A stretch of DNA of 15,180 nucleotides from a virus, in the UHGV virus genome UHGV-0058267; one strand, written 5' to 3'. How positions within the stretch are numbered: position 1 is the first letter of the stretch; each line of letters starts with the position of its first letter. The notes under the pieces are model-generated. The model was not told where the DNA came from. It ran no database searches and saw nothing but the letters and a program-made list of their open reading frames with translations. Shown here in pieces: positions 5,140 through 14,170 of this stretch. A program made the position numbers and the translations under genes.

Positions 5140-5373
5140 ATGCGCATTGAAATAATGATCGATAAAGAGCAGAAGATTAGCCAGTCTACCCTGGACGCCC
5201 TTGAATCCGAGCTTTACCGCAATCTGCGCCCCCTGTATCCCAAAACGGTAATTCGTATCCGAAAAGGTAGCTCTAACGGTGTGGAACTGACCGGACTGCA
5301 ACTGGACGAAGAAAGAAAACAAGTGATGAAAATTATGCAGAAGGTGTGGGAAGACGACAGCTGGCTGCATTAA
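5140..5373 (+). CDS. DinI-family protein (P2 orf91 / 186 SOS-operon type)
   Basis: 77 aa. MRIEIMIDKEQKISQSTLDALESELYRNL...WEDDSWLH has the length, N-terminal MR(I/V)E pattern and acidic Trp-containing C-terminus of DinI. RBS TGAGGTGA at 5127-5134. Confidence 0.85.
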   Translation: MRIEIMIDKEQKISQSTLDALESELYRNLRPLYPKTVIRIRKGSSNGVELTGLQLDEERKQVMKIMQKVWEDDSWLH

Positions 5374-5462
5374 GAAACGTTGCTGGCATCAGTACTTGAT
5401 TCTGAAGCCAGCAAGGTTGAACAACGAGCAGGGCGAGGCGTTAGTGTTATCATCAAAGAATT

Positions 5463-6020
5463 TCACATAAACATCTGGATTTGCTCGTTTTTTAGTTGGT
5501 TGATTTTTTCGCGCAATCTGATCTTTTCATCAGCTTTTTCCAAAGAGGCTGGTGACATGCAGTTAATCAAAGCGTCAAGGTGCTCTGGAGATTTGATAAT
5601 AAAGAACTTTTTGTATTTATTAACAAAAACGACAGAGCATTTTTTACGTTTAAGAAGCTCAATCACGTTACTCAGAGTACCCGTGCTCTTCGTATCCCAA
5701 ACCATTAATCCATAATCGGCTTCTTCTGCCATTTTGAGATCTTTCGCAGTGAAAAACGCGCGAGTGCCGGCTGCATGGCTAGTACTTACTACATGTACAG
5801 GCCATGAGCCAAGATTATTGCGCGGTTTTTCTGAGCTACTGAATACTGTGGCTTTTTCACATCCAAGTTCTAGCAATACGCGTTGAACAGATGAATCAAC
5901 ACCATTGGCATCACCAACTACAATACGAAAACGCGAGTTAACAATTTTTTTCAGACGATCCACGATGAGTGTGTCAAGGTTTTTGATGGTTATTGAACCA
6001 GCAACAAATACCGTAGTCAT
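5463..6020 (-). CDS. DprA/Smf-like (SLOG Rossmann-fold) protein; ShosA-like component
   Basis: Contains VFVAGS...RIVVGDANGVDSSVQ, the GxAxGxD nucleotide-binding signature of DprA/SLOG domains, and a C-terminal coiled-coil tail. ATG at 6020 lies 5 nt after GGAGATAG. The track start at 6032 is a TTG inside the upstream gene. The gene starts 2 nt after the PRTase stop. Confidence 0.7.
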   Translation of the reverse strand: MTTVFVAGSITIKNLDTLIVDRLKKIVNSRFRIVVGDANGVDSSVQRVLLELGCEKATVFSSSEKPRNNLGSWPVHVVSTSHAAGTRAFFTAKDLKMAEEADYGLMVWDTKSTGTLSNVIELLKRKKCSVVFVNKYKKFFIIKSPEHLDALINCMSPASLEKADEKIRLREKINQLKNEQIQMFM

Positions 6021-6022
6021 CA

Positions 6023-6604
6023 CTATCTCCAAGTCAAAGCTGCAACATAAATGCTTCTAACCTTAGTATAATCGTTTAGCACAGCACAAGCAGCCTCCAT
6101 AGATGCGCCTGTATGGTAGAGGTCGTCAATGATAAGGACATTCCAGTTGCCATTATTCTCAATACTGTCATTAACAGAGAACGAATTACCCAGCGCCGTG
6201 ATTTTCTCTTCTTTTGTATTCAGGTTCTTTAGCGAAGCCCCGCCGGGGGCTTTCAACAAGAGGTCATCGAAGCATGGTTTGCCAACTAGTTTGGCTAGTT
6301 CCTGAGCTATTTCGGTCACTGGCTGGCGTGCACGCTGATTAGATGCAGCCATTGGAACGATAAACCCGACATTGCTGAAATGAGGAAAGGCATGCTCTGC
6401 TAGGCATTGGGCTAAAGGCTTAACTTGTGACCAATCGTCACGGTATTTAAGCTGGAAAAGAGATTCGCCTACCTCAGTACGCTCAGTCTCAAACCGCATA
6501 TGTCCCCACTCATCGTAACCAATGGGAATGCTGCGGATGCTGTGTTTATCCATCGCAAGACCTAATTCCCAATTTCCAACAATCTGTTTTATGTTGACTT
6601 TCAT
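6023..6604 (-). CDS. ComF/GntX-like type I phosphoribosyltransferase; ShosT-like component
   Basis: PRPP-binding loop VLIIDDLYHTGASM (aa 156-169, acidic pair D160-D161). 193 aa. It is the first gene of a two-gene minus-strand operon. Confidence 0.8.
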   Translation of the reverse strand: MKVNIKQIVGNWELGLAMDKHSIRSIPIGYDEWGHMRFETERTEVGESLFQLKYRDDWSQVKPLAQCLAEHAFPHFSNVGFIVPMAASNQRARQPVTEIAQELAKLVGKPCFDDLLLKAPGGASLKNLNTKEEKITALGNSFSVNDSIENNGNWNVLIIDDLYHTGASMEAACAVLNDYTKVRSIYVAALTWR

Positions 6605-6875
6605 GGCTCACCGTTTGCTGTGTAAAACACCAAAGACTACCTCTTGTTATATTTGGTGAAAGCGAAAGTTTCATTTTTTGCAGTGGAGATCAAATGTTAC
6701 TCCGTGAACATTTTTAGCATGTGGCCTCGCTACACGGTTTGGCGTAACTACTGCATGTCTATACTGCATGAATCCGCATGATCGTTTAAGGATCGCTCTA
6801 GTTGGGGCCTGCTAGGTATGGCGGGCTTTTGCTTATGTCATGCAGGTGCATGAAAACCACTATATAAAGCGGGCA

Positions 6876-6894
6876 GGCGTGGCGGGGATACGAT
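6876..6894. other. Candidate cos cohesive-end sequence (186-like)
   Basis: GGCGTGGCGGGGATACGAT compared with the 186 cohesive end as I remember it, GGCGTGGCGGGGAAAGCAT: 16 of 19 identical, including the first 13. It lies between gene A and the portal gene, where P2-family cos sits. Confidence 0.55.
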
Positions 6895-6951
6895 TGCGCT
6901 CGCATCCTTTTCGTATTAATCTGATATCAATTTAAAACGAAGAGTTCGCAA

Positions 6952-8055
6952 ATGAAAATTATTTCAATATTTAATAATAAAGGTGGTGTAGGAAAATCCA
7001 CTCTTGGATACCATACTGCGCATGCATTGGCAGAGAAAGGTATTAAAACTTTAATGATTGACCTTGATCCACAGTCGAATCTCACTTTACAGTGTATTTC
7101 TCCTGAGGAGTTAGAAAAGTTATGGCTAGAAGAAGAGCCATTTATTGAGGACTTCCAATCAGCTTTAGAGGAAAGTAAACTTTCGTATCAAGATTTTTTG
7201 AGTAAGCCGAGAAGCATTCATTGCTTATTAAAACCAATAGAAGATGGCGTCTACGAATCTTCTTCACTAAGTTCTGTTTATGAGCTTAATGATAAATTAG
7301 GTATTATTCCAGGTCGTTTAAGTTTGCATAAATATGAGGATAAAATCGCGAAGGGTTGGAGTGATGCCTTCATGGGAGAACCTCAAGCACTGCGACTTAT
7401 TACCAGTATTAGGAACTTATGTCTAGAAGCAGAGGAAAAATTTGGTTATGAAATGGTAATAATAGACACATCTCCTAGTCTCGGTATGCTTAACAGAGTT
7501 ATCATTTCTACATCAACCGGATTTTTTGTCCCATGCATGCCCGATATGTTCTCCACCTTTGGGATTACTAACATAGGAGAGTCATTAAAGAATTGGAAAA
7601 ATCAGTTCGATACCATGTATAAACTTTTGCCTGATAAAAAGAGAAATGTTTTCCCTAAAAACTTCGTTAAGTTTTTAGGTTATACTATTTATAACGCGAA
7701 GAAATATGAAGGCAGAAATGAACTTGATTTAGCGACCGCGCATTACTCATATGTTCAGAAAATTCCCAATGTGATCAAAAAACACATTCCTCAAGAATGT
7801 TATCAAGAGCAAGATCTTGCAGACATTTCACAACCAATTGGTGGAAAATCAGTTATTCACTCGCATAATACTCTTCCTTCTATGTCTCAAAAGTATAGGG
7901 TGCCCATATGGAAAGTTCCTTTCATCCAATCCATGAGCGCAGAAGACAGAGCCACTGTTTCAGGTAATAGACAGACTTTTCTTGACAAGCAGCAGGCATA
8001 TAGTGATTTTGCCGATTCTCTTTTGGCTCGTATTGATAAGATTGGAGAAGAATAG
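6952..8055 (+). CDS. ParA/MinD-family (deviant Walker A) ATPase with a large acidic insertion and a C-terminal extension
   Basis: MKIISIFNNKGGVGKST carries the KGGxGK[ST] motif with signature K10 and K15. Walker A' is LMIDLDPQ and Walker B is YEMVIIDTSPS (D172). At 367 aa it is about 100 aa longer than a minimal ParA. The DNA is very AT-rich. Confidence 0.85.
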   Translation: MKIISIFNNKGGVGKSTLGYHTAHALAEKGIKTLMIDLDPQSNLTLQCISPEELEKLWLEEEPFIEDFQSALEESKLSYQDFLSKPRSIHCLLKPIEDGVYESSSLSSVYELNDKLGIIPGRLSLHKYEDKIAKGWSDAFMGEPQALRLITSIRNLCLEAEEKFGYEMVIIDTSPSLGMLNRVIISTSTGFFVPCMPDMFSTFGITNIGESLKNWKNQFDTMYKLLPDKKRNVFPKNFVKFLGYTIYNAKKYEGRNELDLATAHYSYVQKIPNVIKKHIPQECYQEQDLADISQPIGGKSVIHSHNTLPSMSQKYRVPIWKVPFIQSMSAEDRATVSGNRQTFLDKQQAYSDFADSLLARIDKIGEE

Positions 8056-8057
8056 TT

Positions 8058-8735
8058 ATGGCTCTTAAAGAAAAATATGCGGACATTTATAGGCGTCTTA
8101 AAGATGAGATCGATGCCTATGAATATTTCATGAAGAATATTAAAAATTTTTTCGAGTCAACTAAAGTAAAAGCTCATGTCCATTCACTTCGTTTTAGGTT
8201 GAAAGATATTGATCATCTTTTAGAGAAAATAGAAAGAAAAAACCATGAGGATGATCAGTTACCTGAAGCAGAGCGAAAAGGTCATATCACAGCTGAAAAT
8301 ATTTTTAACCGTATAACGGATATAGCTGGAATAAGAGTATTACACCTTCATTTAAGTCAAATGGAAGATATACATCGTGCAATTATGAGGGCAGTAGATG
8401 AAGGGGAGTATGCGCTTTTTGAAGAGCCAAAGGCATATACTTGGGATCCTGAGTCCAAAGTTTATTTTGAGAGTTTGGGTCTTAAGCCTCATGTAAAACA
8501 AAGTTTTTATACGAGCATTCATTATGTCCTGAAACCTAATAGAGAAGGGAGTGTTACTTGTTGTGAAGTTCAAGTCAGAACTCTTCTTGAGGAGGTTTGG
8601 GGGGAAATTGATCATACAATGAATTATCCTATCCAGCATGTCGATGAGAACTGCAAAGAACAGATAAAAATTCTTGCTAGACTGATTGGCGCTGGAAGTC
8701 ATTTAGCTGATTCAATTATGAAACGCTATCAATGA
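8058..8735 (+). CDS. Small RelA/SpoT-homologue synthetase-domain protein (toxSAS-like nucleotide pyrophosphokinase)
   Basis: All core SAS motifs are present: R47-L-K49-x9-K (FRLKDIDHLLEKIERK), TD88IAGIR, Y151TSIH155 and E170VQVRTLLEEVWGEIDH. 225 aa with no hydrolase or regulatory domains. The start lies 2 nt after the ATPase stop, with GGAGAAG upstream. Confidence 0.85.
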   Translation: MALKEKYADIYRRLKDEIDAYEYFMKNIKNFFESTKVKAHVHSLRFRLKDIDHLLEKIERKNHEDDQLPEAERKGHITAENIFNRITDIAGIRVLHLHLSQMEDIHRAIMRAVDEGEYALFEEPKAYTWDPESKVYFESLGLKPHVKQSFYTSIHYVLKPNREGSVTCCEVQVRTLLEEVWGEIDHTMNYPIQHVDENCKEQIKILARLIGAGSHLADSIMKRYQ

Positions 8736-8766: not shown

Positions 8767-9141
8767 TTAAATAAGTTTGTAGTCTTCAAAGTTTATTATC
8801 GGCTCATCTAACCATTTGTTAATCTCCTCAATTCTCTTTTGAAGAGGTTTAAGTTCGTTCCTAACAAAAACCATACTAGCCTTCTCCACATCCCCAAACC
8901 CCCCAACATTATTAGGCATAATCCCCATCATTTGCGGCGGCACGCGGTGCGCAGCCATCATGTCATCGCGGCTGACATTTTTGATATTCAGAAACTCATC
9001 CTTCGCCGCCACCTCTGACAACGGGATAATCTGAAGCCCGTCCTTTTTGCCGTTAGGCGAGTACATAAATAGGTTGCGGAAGTTACCCAGGGCGGCGGAG
9101 CGATGAGTTCTAACGGGATCGTGGTTGATGCGCATCAGCAT
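8767..9141 (-). pseudogene. Q: 3' fragment (about 124 codons) of the portal gene Q; the N-terminal two thirds are deleted
   Basis: ...SRDDMMAAHRVPPQMMGIMPNNVGGFGDVEKASMVFVRNELKPLQKRIEEINKWL... matches the conserved C-terminal region of P2 gpQ / PBSX-family portals, which are about 340 aa in P2 from memory. Upstream of 9141 the DNA encodes V/W on the other strand. Confidence 0.8.
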
Positions 9142-9186: not shown

Positions 9187-9542
9187 CGCTTTATAGCGGG
9201 ATGAACAATACCAGCGGTAAAGCTATTACTGATATTGACCATCTGCGCCAGTCGGTGCGGGACATTCTGCTGACACCGCAGGGTAGCCGTATTGCCCGCC
9301 GGGAATATGGTTCCCTGCTGTCGGCACTGATAGATCAGCCACAAAATCCGGCATTACGCCTGCAGGTCATGTCGGCAGTGTATGTGGCGCTGAGTCGCTG
9401 GGAGCCACGGTTGACGCTGGATTCCATCACCATCAACAGCAATTTTGACGGTTCAATGGTGGTGGAGCTGACCGGGCGGCGGAATAACGGTGTGCCTGTG
9501 TCCCTTTCCGTATCAACAGGAGCAGAGAATGGCAGTGATTGA
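9183..9542 (+). CDS. W: Baseplate wedge protein gpW (GPW/gp25 family)
   Basis: 119 aa. ...DIDHLRQSVRDILLTPQGSRIARREYGSLLSALIDQPQNPAL... is collinear with P2 gpW. RBS GGAGG at 9172-9176. Confidence 0.9.
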   Translation: MTLYSGMNNTSGKAITDIDHLRQSVRDILLTPQGSRIARREYGSLLSALIDQPQNPALRLQVMSAVYVALSRWEPRLTLDSITINSNFDGSMVVELTGRRNNGVPVSLSVSTGAENGSD

Positions 9543-10437
9543 CCTTTCGCAGTTGCCTGCGCCGCAGATTGTGGATGTGCCGAACTTTGAGACGCTGCTT
9601 GCCGAACGCAAGGCAGAATTTGTGGCGCTTCATCCGAAAGATGAGCAGGAGGCTGTGATCCGCACGCTGGAACTGGAATCTGAACCCGTCACCAAATTGC
9701 TGCAGGAGAACGCTTACCGTGAGTTGCTTCTGCGCCAGCGCATTAACGAAGCCGCGCAGGCGGTGATGGTGGCTTACGCGATGGGCGGCGATCTTGACCA
9801 GCTCGCTGCCAACTACAACGTGACACGCCTGACGGTGACGCCTGCTGATAATGATGCTGTGCCGCCCGTTGCAGCTGTGATGGAAAGCGATGAAGCGTTA
9901 CGCCTGCGTGTGCCTGCAGCCTTTGAGGGGCTTTCAGTTGCGGGGCCAACTGCAGCTTATGAATTTCATGCCCGAAGCGCCGACGGTCGGGTGGCGGATG
10001 CCAGTGCAACCAGCCCGGCACCTGCAGAGGTGGTGCTGACTGTCCTTAGCCGCGAAGGCGATGGAACAGCAGAAAAAGACCTGCTGGATGTGGTGGAGAA
10101 AGCCCTGAACAGTGAGAACGTCCGCCCGGTGGCTGACCGTCTGACGGTTCGCAGTGCAGAAATCATCCCGTACCGCGTGGAAGCTACCATTTTTCTCTAT
10201 CCGGGGCCGGAAGCAGAGCCGGTAATGGCAGCGGCAAAAGCCAGCCTGCAGAAGTACATCGCCAGTCAGACGCGTCTTGGTCGGGATATTCGCCGTAGCG
10301 CCATTTTTGCCGCGCTGCATGTTGAGGGTGTTCAGCGTGTGGAACTGGCTTCCCCGCTGGCGGATGTGGTCCTGAACAAAACGCAGGCGGCATCATGTAC
10401 GGAGTGGAGCGTGACCAACGGGGGAACGGATGAATAG
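9529..10437 (+). CDS. J: Baseplate protein gpJ
   Basis: MAVIDLSQLPAPQIVDVPNFETLLAERKAEFVALHPKDEQEAV... is collinear with the P2 gpJ N-terminus. 302 aa from ATG 9529 (AGGAG at 9518-9522). The track start at 9490 is a GTG inside W. Confidence 0.9.
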   Translation: MAVIDLSQLPAPQIVDVPNFETLLAERKAEFVALHPKDEQEAVIRTLELESEPVTKLLQENAYRELLLRQRINEAAQAVMVAYAMGGDLDQLAANYNVTRLTVTPADNDAVPPVAAVMESDEALRLRVPAAFEGLSVAGPTAAYEFHARSADGRVADASATSPAPAEVVLTVLSREGDGTAEKDLLDVVEKALNSENVRPVADRLTVRSAEIIPYRVEATIFLYPGPEAEPVMAAAKASLQKYIASQTRLGRDIRRSAIFAALHVEGVQRVELASPLADVVLNKTQAASCTEWSVTNGGTDE

Positions 10438-11035
10438 TCTGCTGCCACCGGGTTCAACACCACTGGAGCGCCGACTGGCACAAACCTGCAGCGGGATTTC
10501 TGATCTGCAGGTGCCGCTTCGTGACTTGTGGAATCCGGCAACCTGTCCGGTCAGTTTCCTGCCTTATCTCGCCTGGGCTTTCTCTGTGGATCGCTGGGAC
10601 GAGGGCTGGACAGAAAGCGTCAAACGCCAGGTGGTGAAGGATGCTTTTTATATTCATCAGCATAAAGGGACCACCAGTGCCGTGCGGCGGGTGGTGGAGC
10701 CGTTCGGATTCCTGATCCGCATTATTGAGTGGTGGCAGACCGGAGAAACACCGGGCACGTTTCGCCTGGATATTGGCGTGCAGGACCAGGGCATCACTGA
10801 AGATACCTATCTGGAACTTGAGCGGCTGATAAGCGATGCCAAACCATGCAGCCGTCACATGACTGGCATGTCCATCAATCTGCAGACCAGCGGTCCGCAT
10901 TGGGTAGGGGCTGCCAGCTATCTTGGCGAAGAAATCACGATCTATCCGTATATCAACGAAACGATTATTTCCGGTGGCACCGCGCATGAAGGCGGGGCGG
11001 TCCATGTTATTGACACAATGAGAGTGAATCCATGA
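10430..11035 (+). CDS. I: Baseplate / tail-fibre-attachment protein gpI
   Basis: MNSLLPPGSTPLERRLA...FLPYLAWAFSVDRWDEGW... is the P2 gpI family signature. It overlaps J by 8 nt and H by ATGA. Confidence 0.9.
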   Translation: MNSLLPPGSTPLERRLAQTCSGISDLQVPLRDLWNPATCPVSFLPYLAWAFSVDRWDEGWTESVKRQVVKDAFYIHQHKGTTSAVRRVVEPFGFLIRIIEWWQTGETPGTFRLDIGVQDQGITEDTYLELERLISDAKPCSRHMTGMSINLQTSGPHWVGAASYLGEEITIYPYINETIISGGTAHEGGAVHVIDTMRVNP

Positions 11036-12774
11036 GCACAAAATTTTATACCCTGCTGACGGAGATTGGTGCGGCGAAGCTTGCCAGCGCCACTGCACTT
11101 GGTGTGCCGCTTAAAATTACCCATATGGCGGTGGGGGATGGCGGCGGAGCATTGCCGACGCCGGACGCAAAGCAGACTGCACTGGTAAATGAGAAACGCC
11201 GGGCTGCGCTGAATATGCTTTATATCGACCCGCAGAACAGCAGCCAGATTATTGCCGAACAGGTGATCCCTGAAAACGAGGGCGGTTGGTGGATACGTGA
11301 AGTGGGCCTGTTTGATGAGTCAGGGGCATTGATTGCCGTGGGCAACTGCCCGGAAAGCTATAAGCCGCAACTGGCTGAAGGCAGCGGGCGCACCCAGACC
11401 GTGCGTATAGTGCTGATAACCAGCTGCACGGACAATATCACCCTGAAAATCGATCCTGCCGTCGTGCTGGCAACCCGCAAGTATGTGGATGACAAGGCAC
11501 TGGAGCTGAAGGTGTATGTGGATGATCTGATGGCAAAACACCTTGCCGCACCAGATCCGCATTCACAGTACGCGCCAAAAGCCAGCCCGACATTTACCGG
11601 AACCCCCAAAGCGCCAACGCCAGCGGCAGGGAATAATACCACGCAGGTTGCGACCACCGCGTTTGTACAGGCGGCACTGACGGCTCTTATTAATGGTGCG
11701 CCAGCCACGCTGGACACACTGAAAGAAATAGCCGCAGCCATTAACAATGACCCGAAATTCAGCACCACCATTAACAATGCGCTGGCACTGAAAGCGCCGC
11801 TGTCGAGTCCGGCACTTACCGGAACGCCAACAGCACCTACTGCGGCACAGTCGGTCAACAATACACAGATTGCCACCACGGCTTTTGTGAAATCGGCGAT
11901 TGCAGCAATGGTGGGTTCTGCACCTGCGGCACTGGATACACTGAACGAACTGGCGGCGGCGCTGGGGAATGACCCGAACTTTGCCACGACAATGCTTAAT
12001 GCACTGGCAGGTAAACAACCGCTGGACAATACGCTGACTAATTTGAGTGGAAAGGATGTAGCTGGTCTTCTCACATACCTTGGTTTGGGAGAAGCCAGAT
12101 TCTCTGGTCGTTTGTTAAACACGAATATTTTTAAAAGCTCTGGAAAATATATCCCAACACCAGGGACAAAAAAGATAAGGGTCATTGCCTCTGGTGGCGG
12201 TGGCGGCGGCGGTGGGGTTCCTGAAACAACAGAAAATCAGCAGGCAACAGCCGGAGCTGGATTGAGCGGCGCATTTATTGAAGCATTTTTCGAGGTTGAT
12301 AATGATTTCGAAGTCAACGTTATTATCGGTGCTGCAGGTAAAGGGGGGGGAGCCGGAGGAAATTCAGGTAGTGAAGGTGGCACAACTTATTTCGGTTCCA
12401 TGATAACTGCACCAGGTGGTACAGGCGGTGGCGCGGGGGGAGCATCTGCAAACACATCATATATTCAGGGTATTTCATGGGGTGCCAGTCCGACATCGTC
12501 CGGTACAGTACTAAGAGCATTTCGCTGTAGTGCAAAAACACCAGGAGCAATGGTTATCTCTGTTAAAGCTGTAGCAGGTGGTACCGGGGGGGATACACCA
12601 TTAGGTTCAGGCGGTATAGGTGGTGCAAGTTCTTCATCATTCAGCGGACGTGGTGGTGGTAAAGCTGAGGGCTTTGGTGCTGGCGGAGGCGGAGCCTGCG
12701 CACCTGCTGGAAGTGAGGCTCAATCGGGAGGTGACGGTGCCCCGGGAATAGTTATTGTTGAGGAGTATGCCTGA
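11032..12774 (+). CDS. H: Tail fibre protein gpH. The conserved N-terminal and shaft part is currently joined to a glycine-rich C-terminal domain encoded inside the invertible segment.
   Basis: The N-terminus MSTKFYTLLTEIGAAKLA...WWIREVGLFDESGALIAVGN is P2 H-like. It is followed by two fibre repeats. After the crossover site comes ...YIPTPGTKKIRVIASGGGGGGGG...GGDGAPGIVIVEEYA*, a typical glycine-rich fibre-tip domain. Confidence 0.9.
   Translation: MSTKFYTLLTEIGAAKLASATALGVPLKITHMAVGDGGGALPTPDAKQTALVNEKRRAALNMLYIDPQNSSQIIAEQVIPENEGGWWIREVGLFDESGALIAVGNCPESYKPQLAEGSGRTQTVRIVLITSCTDNITLKIDPAVVLATRKYVDDKALELKVYVDDLMAKHLAAPDPHSQYAPKASPTFTGTPKAPTPAAGNNTTQVATTAFVQAALTALINGAPATLDTLKEIAAAINNDPKFSTTINNALALKAPLSSPALTGTPTAPTAAQSVNNTQIATTAFVKSAIAAMVGSAPAALDTLNELAAALGNDPNFATTMLNALAGKQPLDNTLTNLSGKDVAGLLTYLGLGEARFSGRLLNTNIFKSSGKYIPTPGTKKIRVIASGGGGGGGGVPETTENQQATAGAGLSGAFIEAFFEVDNDFEVNVIIGAAGKGGGAGGNSGSEGGTTYFGSMITAPGGTGGGAGGASANTSYIQGISWGASPTSSGTVLRAFRCSAKTPGAMVISVKAVAGGTGGDTPLGSGGIGGASSSSFSGRGGGKAEGFGAGGGGACAPAGSEAQSGGDGAPGIVIVEEYA
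11584..12024 (+). repeat. Two tandem ~73-aa tail-fibre shaft repeats within H
   Basis: Repeat 1 (11584-11802): SPTFTGTPKAPTPAAGNNTTQVATTAFVQAAL..APATLDTLKEIAAAINNDPKFSTTINNALALKAPL. Repeat 2 (11803-12024): SSPALTGTPTAPTAAQSVNNTQIATTAFVKSAI..APAALDTLNELAAALGNDPNFATTMLNALAGKQPL. Confidence 0.85.
12068..12093. promoter_or_regulatory. Left recombination site (hix/gix/cix type) for the serine invertase, inside H
   Basis: TTCTCACATACC-TT-GGTTTGGGAGAA: two 12-bp half-sites around a 2-bp TT core, matching the TTnTCnnAAACC half-site pattern of Hin/Gin/Cin sites. 12080-12100 is a perfect 21-bp inverted repeat of 13516-13536. Confidence 0.85.
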
Positions 12775-13040
12775 TGAGTAATTTTGCTCTGATTGAACAT
12801 GGCGTGGTGAAAAATATTATTATCTGGGATGGAGAGGGTGATTTATTCTCTAATTGCGAAATTATAAATATTGATCATATAGATGCAGGCGTCGGTTGGT
12901 TCTATTCTGACGGAGAGTTTATAGCACCACCGGAACCGGAAATGACTGAATATGATGTTGGTAACATCGACGCGGTGATGGAAGCAGATACCAGCACCGC
13001 GCCGGGGGTTATCTGGCCAGTTCCACCTGAGATGGTTTAA
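12774..13040 (+). CDS. Small protein downstream of the active fibre tip; putative fibre chaperone or assembly factor
   Basis: 88 aa. The ATG overlaps the H stop (TGATG at 12772-12776). MSNFALIEHGVVKNIIIWDG... resembles small ORFs that I recall following glycine-rich fibre genes. No catalytic motif. Confidence 0.5.
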   Translation: MSNFALIEHGVVKNIIIWDGEGDLFSNCEIINIDHIDAGVGWFYSDGEFIAPPEPEMTEYDVGNIDAVMEADTSTAPGVIWPVPPEMV

Positions 13041-13206
13041 TCTCAATCAGAATGGGTTCGCCATTCTCGTTAACAGATATTTCCATTCCTTCAGGGATTT
13101 CAGATGCAGTAAAAAACCAGTTATCTTCTGGTAATTCCACAGCCCCGGTCACGTCATGAAGACCGGGGATTACTTCAGTCAAAGTAACAGGATTAAACAG
13201 GCGCAC
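13009..13206 (-). CDS. Alternative small fibre accessory gene, silent in the present orientation
   Basis: GTG at 13206 lies 7 nt after GGAGAG (minus strand ...cctGGAGAGtttattGTGcgc) and overlaps the stop of the silent fibre cassette by 14 nt. This gives MRLFNPVTLTEV..., 65 aa. The track start at 13296 would overlap the cassette by 104 nt. Confidence 0.4.
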   Translation of the reverse strand: MRLFNPVTLTEVIPGLHDVTGAVELPEDNWFFTASEIPEGMEISVNENGEPILIEIKPSQVELAR

Positions 13207-13548
13207 AATAAACTCTCCAGGAAAAAGCACTTGTTGATGGTCTTCCGTCGTACATCTGGCAGCGGACATAAAAACCTGTATTACTGACCTGGTCATCCAC
13301 GATCATTGAAACGTGAACGTTATTAGGTGTGGCCTCGTAATCTGTTCTTATTCTTTCCGCTATGCTGATAAAACGTGAAAGCTTAGGTAGTGCAATTGGA
13401 TAAACGACTTTAGCCAGCCCATTATCATTGGAACCACCAGTTCCAAATACTTCTATTGCACCATCTGACCAGCGTATCCATGCACCATTGACATTAGCTC
13501 CTCGCTGAATGACATATCTGGCTTCTCCCAAACCAACGTTTAAGAAAA
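13193..13548 (-). CDS. Silent, promoterless alternative tail-fibre C-terminal cassette (gp53-like tip), expressed only after inversion
   Basis: The minus-strand frame reads ...NVGLGEARYVIQRGANVNGAWIRWSDGAIEVFGTGGSNDNGLAKVVYPIALP...RVYCAPV*. GLGEAR is encoded by the shared inverted repeat, so inversion fuses it in frame to H (...TYLGLGEAR). The upstream MMPVSRNLCIF of the track ORF lies outside the segment and is fortuitous. Confidence 0.75.
13523..13548. promoter_or_regulatory. Right recombination site (hix/gix/cix type)
   Basis: TTCTCCCAAACC-AA-CGTTTAAGAAAA. The inner half-site is the exact reverse complement of the inner half of the left site, and the core AA opposes TT on the left, giving an inverted orientation. 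Confidence 0.85.
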
Positions 13549-13603
13549 TGCAGAGATTACGGCTAACTGGCATCATCTCCGGTTTTTATTCAGGGGGATG
13601 ATC

Positions 13604-14170
13604 ATGCTTATTGGCTATGTACGCGTGTCAACAAATGACCAGAACACCGATTTGCAACGTAATGCACTGAACTGCGCGGGATGTGAGCGGATTTTTGAGG
13701 ACAAAATCAGTGGCACTAAGTCCGACAGACCGGGGCTGAAAAAACTGCTCAGGACACTATCGGCAGGAGACACGCTGGTTGTCTGGAAGCTGGACCGGTT
13801 GGGGCGCAGTATGCGGCATCTTGTTACGCTGATAGAAGAGTTGCGCCAGCGTGGCGTGAATTTCCGAAGCCTGACTGACAGTATTGATACCAGTACCCCA
13901 ATGGGCCGTTTCTTTTTTCATGTCATGGGTGCCCTGGCTGAAATGGAACGCGAACTGATAGTTGAACGTACCAGGGCAGGGCTGGCTGCAGCTCGTGTTA
14001 AAGGCAGAGTAGGTGGACGCCGTCCTAAGTTGACCAGCGAACAGTGGGCACAGATTGGGCGTTTACTCGAGGCCGGAGAATCAAGACAGCGTATTGCACT
14101 GATTTTTGATGTAGGCGTTTCTACCATTTATCGAAAATTTCTGGCAAATAAGAGCAATGAATCTCCCTGA
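13604..14170 (+). CDS. Hin/Gin/Cin/Pin-family serine DNA invertase
   Basis: MLIGYVRVSTNDQNTDLQRNAL... (catalytic Ser in VRVST) followed by ...LVVWKLDRLGRSMRHL...FFFHVMGALAEMERELIVERT... and a C-terminal HTH (VSTIYRKF). ATG at 13604 lies 6 nt after AGGGGG. The track start at 13598 abuts the RBS. Confidence 0.92.
   Translation: MLIGYVRVSTNDQNTDLQRNALNCAGCERIFEDKISGTKSDRPGLKKLLRTLSAGDTLVVWKLDRLGRSMRHLVTLIEELRQRGVNFRSLTDSIDTSTPMGRFFFHVMGALAEMERELIVERTRAGLAAARVKGRVGGRRPKLTSEQWAQIGRLLEAGESRQRIALIFDVGVSTIYRKFLANKSNESP

Follow-up and report, generated by a model that had tools for sequence, protein, structure and literature searches.

Genomic context and gene structure of the cassette

The window analysed here, a stretch of 15,180 nucleotides from the UHGV virus genome UHGV-0058267 that represents a P2-like prophage of E. 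coli, harbours two adjoining minus-strand genes close to a cos-containing segment of P2 type. The original prediction had assigned them to the ShosTA (DprA-PRTase) defence system, which raises the question of whether the pair is a genuine ShosTA or belongs to another family. Our analyses make it moderately probable that the two genes represent a compact, separate and shorter family of the toxin-antitoxin/abortive-infection class that combines a phosphoribosyltransferase (PRTase) with a DprA-like SLOG protein, and that they constitute a self-contained mobile module. Judging from sequence comparisons and structural models, the cassette looks like a stripped-down cousin of ShosTA and PsyrTA, not a true ShosTA.

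The presence of the two ORFs and the 2-nt gap between them, as initially described, agree with the sequence and with RefSeq, and the PRPP-binding loop and the VVGDANGVD motif were both located (Table 1). In the ORF list, gene 2 opens at a TTG codon (6032..5463). We placed its real start at the ATG codon at position 6020, because the N-terminus of the family reads MTTVF and the RefSeq protein is 185 residues long. After the TAG stop codon of the PRTase gene (6025-6023) come TG and this ATG, with a GGAG motif 7 nt 5' of the ATG, a layout that implies translational coupling. RefSeq names the two proteins 'ComF family protein' (WP_024219116) and 'hypothetical protein' (WP_096314295). Both genes are real, as evidenced by their RefSeq annotation, by numerous homologues whose length hardly varies (741 clusters at 90% identity for gene 1 and 1810 for gene 2) and by confident AF2 models, with pLDDT values of 90.8 for the PRTase and 93.8 for the SLOG protein. 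At the stringency of the scanning tools, scans of positions 5300-7000 revealed no convincing sigma-70 promoter 5' of gene 1 and no terminator 3' of gene 2, and Rfam and tRNA scans of the whole window found nothing.

Table 1. Coordinates of the cassette and its surroundings in the window
Feature	Coordinates	Strand	Size or residues	Accession or match	Remarks
Gene 1, ComF-like type I phosphoribosyltransferase	6604..6023	-	193 aa, ATG start	WP_024219116	Proposed toxin/effector
Gene 2, minimal DprA-like SLOG-fold protein	6020..5463	-	185 aa	WP_096314295	Proposed antidote/regulator; Rossmann core (residues 1-144) and C-terminal helical tail (145-184)
PRPP-binding loop VLIIDDLYHTGASM	6098..6139	-	Gene 1 residues 156-169		D160, D161, T165, G166
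First SLOG glycine-rich motif, VVGDANGVD	5895..5921	-	Gene 2 residues 34-42		
Gene junction	6018..6036	-			Order GGAG, stop TAG, TG, ATG (read from sequence)
cos-containing conserved P2 segment	about 6749..6904				Upstream bound of cassette; context, outside the system
DinI-like gene	5140..5373	+		PHROG 189 DinI, 2.6e-30; RefSeq 'DinI-like family protein'	Convergent with cassette; other hotspot boundary

As the original prediction had proposed, the pair occupies the tin/old hotspot of P2, between the DinI-like gene and cos. On its own, the cos stretch is conserved in about 1150 E. coli genomes as well as in P2-like phages, Fels-2 and SopEPhi among them, and it is similar to the cos-proximal sequence of the hotspots cloned by Rousset et al. 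The locus is the P2 defence hotspot known from experiments. A pair of genes for ParA-like and RelA/SpoT proteins is found on the far side of cos. Table S5B of Rousset et al. (2022) already contains, under system #98, two protein sequences identical to those of the window, with 33 occurrences in P2 hotspots, and the same accessions also appear with ParA-like and RelA_SpoT genes in their Table S5A. For system #98 the catalogue provides HHpred labels and no name or phenotype, and the system is present in neither the validated (Table S2A) nor the tested-negative (Table S2B) list. Literature searches with the RefSeq accessions and on ComF, SLOG and anti-phage themes found the short pair discussed nowhere beyond that supplementary catalogue.

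A compact PRTase with an intact PRPP-binding site

Foldseek searches with the AF2 model of the gene 1 product yielded 103 PDB matches at E <= 1e-3, the best 50 of which are all PRTase-fold proteins. The top matches include H. pylori ComFC (7p0h, E=3.5e-6), HP1257, ShosT (8zvd/8zvb) and APRT, and OPRT is a structural neighbour as well. The hallmark of type I PRTases (four hydrophobic residues, two acidic residues and T-G) is present as LIIDDLYHTGAS. In an alignment of 40 homologues, D160, T165 and G166 of the PRPP loop are invariant and D161 is nearly so. This loop aligns with that of APRT and with the ShosT loop KILVIDDFCTEGN, and the D160/D161 pair is equivalent in the alignment to D331/D332 of ShosT. 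The ComF-like type I PRTase fold announced in the original prediction is thereby borne out: by sequence and model, the gene 1 product is a type I phosphoribosyltransferase fold with an intact PRPP-binding site, and catalysis is predicted.

The sole Pfam match of this protein, Pribosyltran (residues 153-179), is under the gathering score, and its 23.8 bits with the comF profile TIGR00201 fall far short of the cut-off of 233.55. Residues 1-45 are modelled as a short stretch of beta structure, and the protein contains only three Cys residues (positions 67, 111 and 173), none of them N-terminal, and therefore lacks the ComF zinc finger. The PADLOC profile for ShosT matches with 33 bits (E = 1.3e-8) over 128 of its 237 positions, and that for PsyrT with 28 bits (E = 1.5e-7), residues 43-190 aligning with positions 538-681 of 689, i.e., the PRTase end of the profile.

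A minimal DprA-like SLOG protein

In Foldseek searches, the gene 2 model matched ShosA best, and DprA and other SLOG proteins were also among its best matches, in line with the DprA/SLOG fold that had been anticipated. The features characteristic of the SLOG superfamily, a Rossmannoid fold, two glycine-rich loops and nearest structural neighbours within the superfamily, are all found. VVGDANGVD fits the DprA pattern G-x-A-x-G-[IV]-D and is paired by hhalign with VSGLAYGID of ShosA; its residues G36, G40 and D42 are invariant even among relatives at 27-50% identity. The broader family also retains a DprA-like GGSR motif after strand 1.

With gene 2 as the query of profile searches, there was no match to PADLOC ShosA at E <= 0.01 or to Pfam DprA (DNA_processg_A), and PADLOC PsyrA (E = 0.012, 12.8 bits) fell short of the same E <= 0.01 threshold. 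Across 40 members of the gene 2 family, weak matches were obtained to ShosA (9/40, best E=5.7e-4) and to DNA_processg_A (16/40, best E=1.2e-3), PsyrA being the commonest weak match of the family. The 185-residue protein has no SAM domain in its AF2 model and no HTH match in Pfam, and it is basic, with a pI of 9.5. Some of its relatives are fused to Abi_alpha, HEPN_AbiU2 or antitoxin-type HTH domains. One candidate fusion of the PRTase and SLOG proteins (P0375, 404 aa), which would have been a 'Rosetta-stone' protein, was discarded: a TGA codon is found exactly at the usual gene junction and all Trp codons are TGG, and this protein therefore results from read-through by the gene caller.

Strict linkage, asymmetric loss and mobility

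In 83 of 92 loci selected for the SLOG gene, the PRTase gene immediately precedes it, the two being separated by -4 to +10 nt. Conversely, a full SLOG gene is found downstream in all 95 testable loci selected for the PRTase. Losses are asymmetric. The SLOG gene is intact while the PRTase gene is truncated (five) or absent (three) in 8 of 79 SLOG-selected genome loci, and the reverse situation, an intact PRTase gene with loss of the SLOG gene, was found in none (Fisher p = 0.0015). Such an asymmetric loss of the PRTase fits a toxin role for this protein and an antidote role for the SLOG protein.

The PRTase-SLOG pair moves horizontally as a cassette, and members of several phyla carry it in prophages, on plasmids or in their chromosomes. 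It is present in 389 of 185,579 species-level genomes and on 101 plasmids, and in 0 of 50,697 isolated phage genomes. Among complete E. coli genomes, 16 out of 5426 have it. P2-like prophages of E. coli carry it in two different moron slots. It adjoins a type II restriction-modification system on one IncFII plasmid and repA on another plasmid, occurs with integrase, reverse transcriptase and transposase genes in one genomic island, and is also seen as isolated chromosomal insertions; its hosts include non-competent ones. The GC content of the pair is 42.9%, versus 53-55% for the backbone. The immediate neighbours at 42 genome loci are mixed, with genes for resolvase, transposases, integrases, Bro-N and M78 peptidase along with many housekeeping genes, a survey that supports mobility and does not amount to strong 'guilt by association' for defence. 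Co-dependence with the ParA-like/RelA-SpoT module across cos was also considered and rejected: the cassette and that module are carried by 16 and 7 genomes, respectively, and both occur together in one only.

This distribution bears on the most mundane reading of the locus, namely that an ordinary metabolic or housekeeping pair, with a purine salvage PRTase or a cellular ComF/GntX protein, happens to reside in a prophage. The RefSeq names 'ComF family protein' or 'amidophosphoribosyltransferase' and the APRT and OPRT structural neighbours of gene 1 would be in keeping with it. We regard it as extremely unlikely given the sub-threshold TIGR00201 and Pribosyltran scores, the patchy occurrence in E. 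coli and in species-level genomes, the AT-richness of the pair relative to its backbone and its movement among prophages, plasmids and islands. In agreement with the original prediction, the low TIGR00201 score sets the PRTase apart from housekeeping ComF proteins, and in relatives the gene is strictly linked to a SLOG gene.

Relationship with ShosTA

The validated ShosTA of E. coli APEC O1 (system #9, alias 'DprA + PRTase' or Rst_DprA-PPRT in Rousset et al. 2022; structures 8zva, 8zvb and 8zvd) is composed of ShosT, a 424-residue protein with an N-terminal HAD-like pyrophosphatase and a PRTase domain, and ShosA, of about 327 residues, with an N-terminal SAM domain, a DprA domain and helix alpha14 at the C-terminus. 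ShosT bound PRPP and none of the tested purines; mutation of D331/D332 abolishes its toxicity, for which the pyrophosphatase domain is nearly dispensable. In ShosA, the ssDNA-binding arginines R139, R234 and R261 are essential for neutralisation. [quoted passage not shown]

If the pair were a genuine, merely shortened ShosTA, it would act in exactly the same way, with the PRTase as toxin and the SLOG protein as a type IV antitoxin able to bind both ssDNA and RecA and to repair the damage. The pair shares with ShosTA its two-gene PRTase and DprA-like SLOG organization in the same P2 cos-proximal hotspot, the equivalent DD pair of the PRPP loop and the DprA-type G-x-A-x-G-V-D motif of gene 2; ShosA as the top structural match of gene 2, ShosT among those of gene 1 and the PADLOC ShosT match also speak for this reading. 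We nevertheless consider it unlikely. The 193- and 185-residue proteins, whose size was given as under half of that of the validated ones, lack the HAD/pyrophosphatase and SAM domains and helix alpha14, the latter two being needed for ShosA activity or stability. The ssDNA-binding arginines do not appear to be conserved either: in a low-confidence hhalign/motif alignment, R139, R234 and R261 fall on I10, A92 (with K93 adjacent) and I120 of gene 2, although the broader family has its GGSR motif at the first of these positions. Gene 1 is structurally nearer to ComFC than to ShosT, and Rousset et al. cluster the pair (#98) apart from system #9.

Direct membership in ShosTA was explored with PADLOC, Pfam and PDB profiles and by aligning the family profiles to the APEC O1 proteins (Table S2A) with hhalign; it was rejected, with motif-level similarity only. 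PDB profile searches with both families returned neither ShosA nor ShosT, and hhalign gave probabilities of 1.7% for ShosA and 3.3% for ShosT, with only 23 columns aligned for the latter. Of the original assignment, the folds, the operon and the hotspot therefore stand, whereas the domain architecture, the ShosA and Pfam DprA models and the near-noise hhalign values depart from ShosTA; the PADLOC check is likewise split between 33 bits only for ShosT and no match for ShosA.

Relationship with PsyrTA/RqlHI, ComFC-DprA and other SLOG proteins

In RqlH, the toxic part is the C-terminal PRTase domain, which is genotoxic alone, and the antidote RqlI, which has a DprA/MoCo-carrier-like (SLOG) region, is encoded immediately 3' of RqlH. 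The cassette has the same order, with the putative toxin gene first and the gene for a SLOG-type antidote second, and the PsyrT profile matches gene 1 at its PRTase end. However, in PsyrT/RqlH, a protein of ~690 residues, the PRTase is fused to a RecQ-like helicase, a domain absent from gene 1, and RqlI is ~400 residues long with a C-terminal HTH domain that gene 2 lacks. A PRTase-only toxin is plausible in view of the near-dispensable pyrophosphatase of ShosT and of the genotoxicity of the RqlH PRTase domain alone.

Another possibility is that the pair serves the mobile element itself in DNA handling, as a miniature ComF-DprA couple for the protection or channelling of ssDNA, and is neither a toxin-antitoxin nor a defence system. 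ComFC binds ssDNA and, through the same loop as that of gene 1, PRPP; in C. jejuni and S. pneumoniae it interacts with DprA, and its zinc finger is needed for DNA uptake and membrane association. In favour of such a couple, gene 1 has its closest structural match in the competence protein ComFC (7p0h), DprA is among the best matches of gene 2, and the SLOG protein is basic. However, gene 1 is devoid of the four-Cys zinc finger and scores far under the ComF family cut-off, and gene 2 lacks the SAM domain, the C-terminal domain and apparently also the ssDNA-binding arginines of DprA. The genetic context consists of mobile elements, not competence loci, and the cassette is also found where the host is non-competent, on plasmids or as an isolated insertion in a chromosome, and in none of the isolated phage genomes. 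A cooperative pair would not predict the asymmetric loss of the PRTase, and we hold this possibility to be very unlikely.

Other SLOG proteins, including YpsA, the MoCo carrier protein, LOG phosphoribohydrolases and the SLOG domain of ThsA, bind or cleave nucleotide-derived ligands; their catalytic or ligand-binding motifs and their partners were not seen here. A further reading is a writer/eraser or writer/reader pair, in which the PRTase would add ribose-5-phosphate to a base, a nucleotide or a macromolecule and the SLOG protein would either hydrolyse the N-glycosidic bond, as a LOG-like phosphoribohydrolase analogous to DarT-DarG/NADAR, or sense the product. The LOG catalytic motif is PGGxGTxxE. 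In its place gene 2 has KSTGTLSNVIE, with a displaced Glu, the sequence-level signal favours DprA, ShosA and PsyrA over LOG, and the broader family keeps the DprA-like GGSR motif, all of which make the writer/eraser reading unlikely. In a more specific version, the pair would be a 'phosphoribosylation' counterpart of DarT-DarG: the stand-alone PRTase would move ribose-5-phosphate from PRPP to a base of DNA, of RNA or of a nucleotide, and the SLOG protein, whose fold includes LOG phosphoribohydrolases and some of whose relatives are fused to NADAR and DUF4326 domains, would enzymatically remove or specifically sense the adduct. This version appears improbable to us.

Proposed mode of action and implications

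In our favoured reading, a shorter family of PRTase and DprA-like SLOG toxin-antitoxin systems, the P2-like prophage would carry the module as a moron in the cos-proximal defence hotspot. ShosT and the RqlH/PsyrT PRTase domain suggest by analogy that the gene 1 product would be the toxic effector, using PRPP to phosphoribosylate some nucleophile and thereby disturbing nucleotide or DNA metabolism. As long as the cell is uninfected, the translationally coupled SLOG protein would hold the PRTase in check. This restraint might be lifted on phage infection, either because the SLOG domain senses a cue derived from DNA or nucleotides or because host synthesis is shut off, and abortive infection would follow. 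The same logic could result in plasmid or prophage addiction.

PRTase toxins are common to ShosTA, PsyrTA/RqlHI and retron effectors. With a 193-residue PRTase and a 185-residue SLOG protein, the cassette would represent the bare core of this class. It is widely distributed, and the confident models of both proteins make it an attractive minimal system to search for the physiological acceptor substrate and to study the restraint of the PRTase by the SLOG protein. Should the DarT-DarG-like reading be true, the cassette would mediate a reversible modification of nucleic acids or nucleotides not yet described in bacterial immunity, and the lack of accessory domains would also make it the simplest system for finding the substrate of ShosT, PsyrT/RqlH and the retron PRTase effectors. 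If it is not defensive, the pair is a candidate new plasmid or prophage addiction module. Present defence HMM sets appear not to call it as a system, PADLOC giving a weak ShosT match and no partner match, and the class may therefore be undercounted in E. coli prophages and in Klebsiella and Enterobacter plasmids.

Genomic setting of the PRTase-SLOG pair

The window spans the early region and the hotspot of an E. coli P2-like prophage, and its positions 5380-6950 are 100% identical to E. coli strain CFSAN061762, whose prophage has its integration site near mdfA/ybjH/rcdA. As originally predicted, a minus-strand operon of two genes separated by 2 nt lies between the DinI-like gene and cos; gene 1 codes for a phosphoribosyltransferase (PRTase) and gene 2 for a SLOG protein. 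The junction reads GGAGATAG-TG-ATG, with the Shine-Dalgarno sequence within the end of gene 1. Gene 2, which the ORF listing begins with a TTG at 6032, starts at the ATG at 6020 according to its RefSeq annotation and to the N-terminus of the family, MTTVF. Both predicted motifs were located, the PRPP loop VLIIDDLYHTGASM with D160/D161 at residues 156-169 of the PRTase, and VVGDANGVD at residues 34-42 of the SLOG protein. The pair is AT-rich (GC 42.9%, versus 53-55% in the phage backbone). The stretch upstream of gene 1 is common to about 1150 E. coli genomes and to P2-like phages, e.g. Fels-2 and SopEPhi, and is the cos region.

Features of the window and of related loci
Feature	Coordinates	Strand	Remarks
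Dam-like methylase, gpA replication endonuclease, small ORF, DinI-like gene		plus	early region
Gene 2 (SLOG)	6020..5463	minus	185 aa, WP_096314295
Gene 1 (PRTase)	6604..6023	minus	193 aa, WP_024219116; pair after DinI-like gene
cos region	about 6749-6904		~155 bp, just upstream of gene 1
ParA-like ATPase and RelA/SpoT-domain genes	6952-8735	plus	beyond cos, portal (Q) side
Portal remnant	8767-9141	minus	
Deletion junction	about 9082-9088		within 7-bp overlap
Tail-fibre gene H	11032-12774		
ORFs resembling tail-fibre C-terminal/assembly segments	13009-13576	minus	
Cin/Gin-type DNA invertase gene	13598-14170	plus	
gpD-ogr variant, loci L003-L007	5411-6558		E. coli chromosomes
Orphan SLOG, loci L022, L063, L066, L081, L085	about 5850-5995		
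Orphan SLOG, loci L060, L086, L092			
Apparent fusion, locus L194	1491-2705		
AIPR-family gene, 30EVA1 (locus L002)	9537-11290		

Two compact protein families

Both families are of constant length. Gene 1 homologues (741 clusters at 90% identity, about 193 aa) bear the NCBI name 'ComF family protein'; gene 2 homologues (1810 clusters, about 185 aa) are all 'hypothetical' and devoid of Pfam domains among precomputed annotations. AlphaFold models built from 40-sequence alignments were confident for both proteins (pLDDT 90.8 and 93.8, respectively). The best structural match of the gene 1 model was H. pylori ComFC (7p0h; E = 3.5e-6, TM 0.62), followed by HP1257, ShosT (8zvd/8zvb) and adenine and orotate PRTases. 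Together with a canonical PRPP loop, invariant across the family, this bears out the predicted ComF-like PRTase. The ComF zinc finger is missing because the sequence has no N-terminal cysteines, and at 23.8 bits the protein falls well short of the ComF family cut-off of 233.55; its sole Pfam match is a sub-threshold one to the PRPP loop.

The gene 2 protein matched nothing in Pfam. In its family, weak matches to Pfam DNA_processg_A, PADLOC PsyrA and PADLOC ShosA were obtained for 16, 14 and 9 of 40 members, respectively (best E about 1e-3). This sequence-level signal is faint but consistent, and the first glycine-rich motif fits the DprA pattern G-x-A-x-G-V-D; the DprA/SLOG-fold partner proposed initially is correct.

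At E <= 1e-3 the wider SLOG family numbers 2089 representatives, some of them fused to NADAR, DUF4326, Abi_alpha, HEPN_AbiU2 or antitoxin-type HTH domains (among proteins P0277, P0294, P0349, P0367, P0339 and P0248), and neighbours at two loci (L198, L199) include a Macro-domain gene and a longer, 265-aa PRTase beside a 30%-identity relative. It seems that one SLOG module has been combined with a variety of conflict-system partners. LOG, YpsA and MCP neighbours, with the NADAR, DUF4326 and Macro associations, suggest another reading, a phosphoribosyl writer/eraser or writer/reader pair, which we deem rather unlikely.

Relation to ShosTA and PsyrTA

PRTase toxins with DprA-like SLOG antidotes in the P2 hotspot are a class already known. 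The validated system, 'DprA + PRTase' of the APEC O1 P2 hotspot (Rousset et al.), had its structure dissected later. ShosT, of 424 aa, has an N-terminal HAD-type pyrophosphatase domain, and ShosA, of about 327 aa, combines a SAM domain with a DprA Rossmann domain and carries an additional helix at its C-terminus. The proteins of the window, in contrast, are not half as large and lack the pyrophosphatase, the SAM domain and that helix, although the gene 2 protein ends in a conserved helical tail of its own. Family profiles of both genes did not find ShosT or ShosA among all PDB sequences. With hhalign, only the PRPP loop aligned to APEC O1 ShosT (probability 3.3%) and only the SLOG motif region to ShosA (1.7%). 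Three arginines serve ShosA and DprA for ssDNA, two of the three being essential for neutralisation; they align to I10, A92 and I120 of gene 2 in that 1.7%-probability alignment, and GGSR is kept at the first site in looser relatives. A ComF-DprA-like role in DNA handling, on which these apparent substitutions and the missing zinc finger bear, seems very improbable.

The exact two proteins are listed as system #98 in Table S5B of Rousset et al. 2022, separately from the validated system #9, and figure in neither the validated nor the tested-negative table. Already catalogued, the pair does not amount to the discovery of a new kind, yet its architecture is distinct, compact and widespread. Smaller proteins, missing domains, weak or absent profile matches and a separate catalogue entry therefore place it next to ShosTA and PsyrTA rather than within either. 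Of the ShosTA assignment first proposed, the PRTase and DprA/SLOG pairing in the P2 hotspot held, but the extra domains are absent and profile similarity is limited to motifs; PADLOC gave 33 bits for ShosT (28 for PsyrT) on gene 1, but nothing at E <= 0.01, ShosA included, on gene 2. True ShosTA membership is thus unlikely, and the pair seems to escape being called as a system by current defence HMMs.

Linkage, asymmetric loss and mobility

Among 92 loci collected via the SLOG protein, from Gamma-, Beta- and Deltaproteobacteria, Acidobacteria, a Peptococcaceae MAG and a Paceibacterota MAG, 83 have the PRTase gene immediately upstream (gap of -4 to +10 nt). Conversely, metagenomes and viral contigs yielded 99 PRTase-selected loci, of which 95 extend far enough to be judged; in every one of these a full SLOG gene lies downstream, and no PRTase stands without its partner. 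Exceptions include five genome loci with an intact SLOG gene after a 13-49-residue C-terminal PRTase remnant and three with no PRTase. Loss of the PRTase is one-way (Fisher p = 0.0015, from small, partly phylogenetically clustered counts), as one would expect of a PRTase that does harm when the SLOG protein is absent, and the orphan SLOG genes look like 'antidote' genes left after toxin decay. Orphan loci are mostly from Pseudomonas, plus one each from Serratia, Cupriavidus and a Paceibacterota MAG.

The cassette, which is mobile, consists strictly of the two genes. A 404-aa PRTase-SLOG fusion was discarded as gene-caller read-through of the TGA stop at the normal junction; its contig also bears a RepA_N plasmid replication gene. 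At the cos-proximal hotspot, the pair is present in 16 of 5426 complete E. coli genomes. A second variant (SLOG 63% identity; 521 contigs) lies between gpD and ogr of P2-like prophages, a different moron slot. The pair also occurs on 101 plasmids, 55 of them conjugative, adjoining a type II restriction-modification system and recombinases on an IncFII plasmid and repA on another, in an island with an integrase, a reverse transcriptase, a transposase and an M78-HTH gene, and, in Neisseria, as a bare insertion among housekeeping genes. None of the 50,697 isolated phage genomes contains it. Immediate neighbours mix mobile-element and housekeeping genes. A role in housekeeping metabolism appears extremely improbable.

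Proposed function

We favour a toxin-antitoxin-like abortive-infection or addiction module as the probable function, in which a PRPP-dependent PRTase effector would be restrained by its co-translated SLOG partner. Alongside the observed architecture, folds, conserved PRPP loop, linkage, mobility and asymmetric loss, analogy with ShosTA and RqlHI suggests that toxicity may reside in the PRTase and neutralisation in the SLOG protein. [quoted passage not shown] ShosA acts indirectly through ssDNA and RecA; RqlI binds its own toxin. The gene 2 protein differs from ShosA in that it has no SAM domain and appears to lack the ssDNA arginines.

Other features of the prophage

Beyond cos, the genes for a 367-aa ParA-like ATPase and for a 225-aa RelA/SpoT-domain protein resembling small alarmone synthetases, spaced by 2 nt and of 36% GC, look like a second, uncharacterised hotspot module. 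PADLOC gave only weak matches, to candidate families PDC-M28B and PDC-S33, and Rousset Table S5A includes this arrangement. Present in 7 of the 5426 genomes, it assorts independently of the PRTase-SLOG pair and co-occurs with it only in CFSAN061762; two independent nucleotide-centred modules thus flank cos, as foreseen.

The window lacks about 8.6 kb found in the otherwise 98%-identical CFSAN061762 prophage, i.e. the N-terminal two-thirds of portal, the terminase, scaffold, capsid, head completion, lysis and tail completion genes, and gpV, a loss that should leave this prophage defective for particle formation. The deletion junction was found in no complete E. coli genome of the collection. 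Downstream of gene H, the invertase gene and the ORFs before it (13009-14170) look like an invertible host-range cassette.

In most other pair-bearing E. coli genomes, the match to the window ends inside the cos region (about window 6893-6918). One such genome, 30EVA1, was inspected; across cos it has an AIPR-family (abortive-infection phage-resistance) gene with a frameshift in place of the ParA-like/RelA-SpoT module. These features show recombination at cos.
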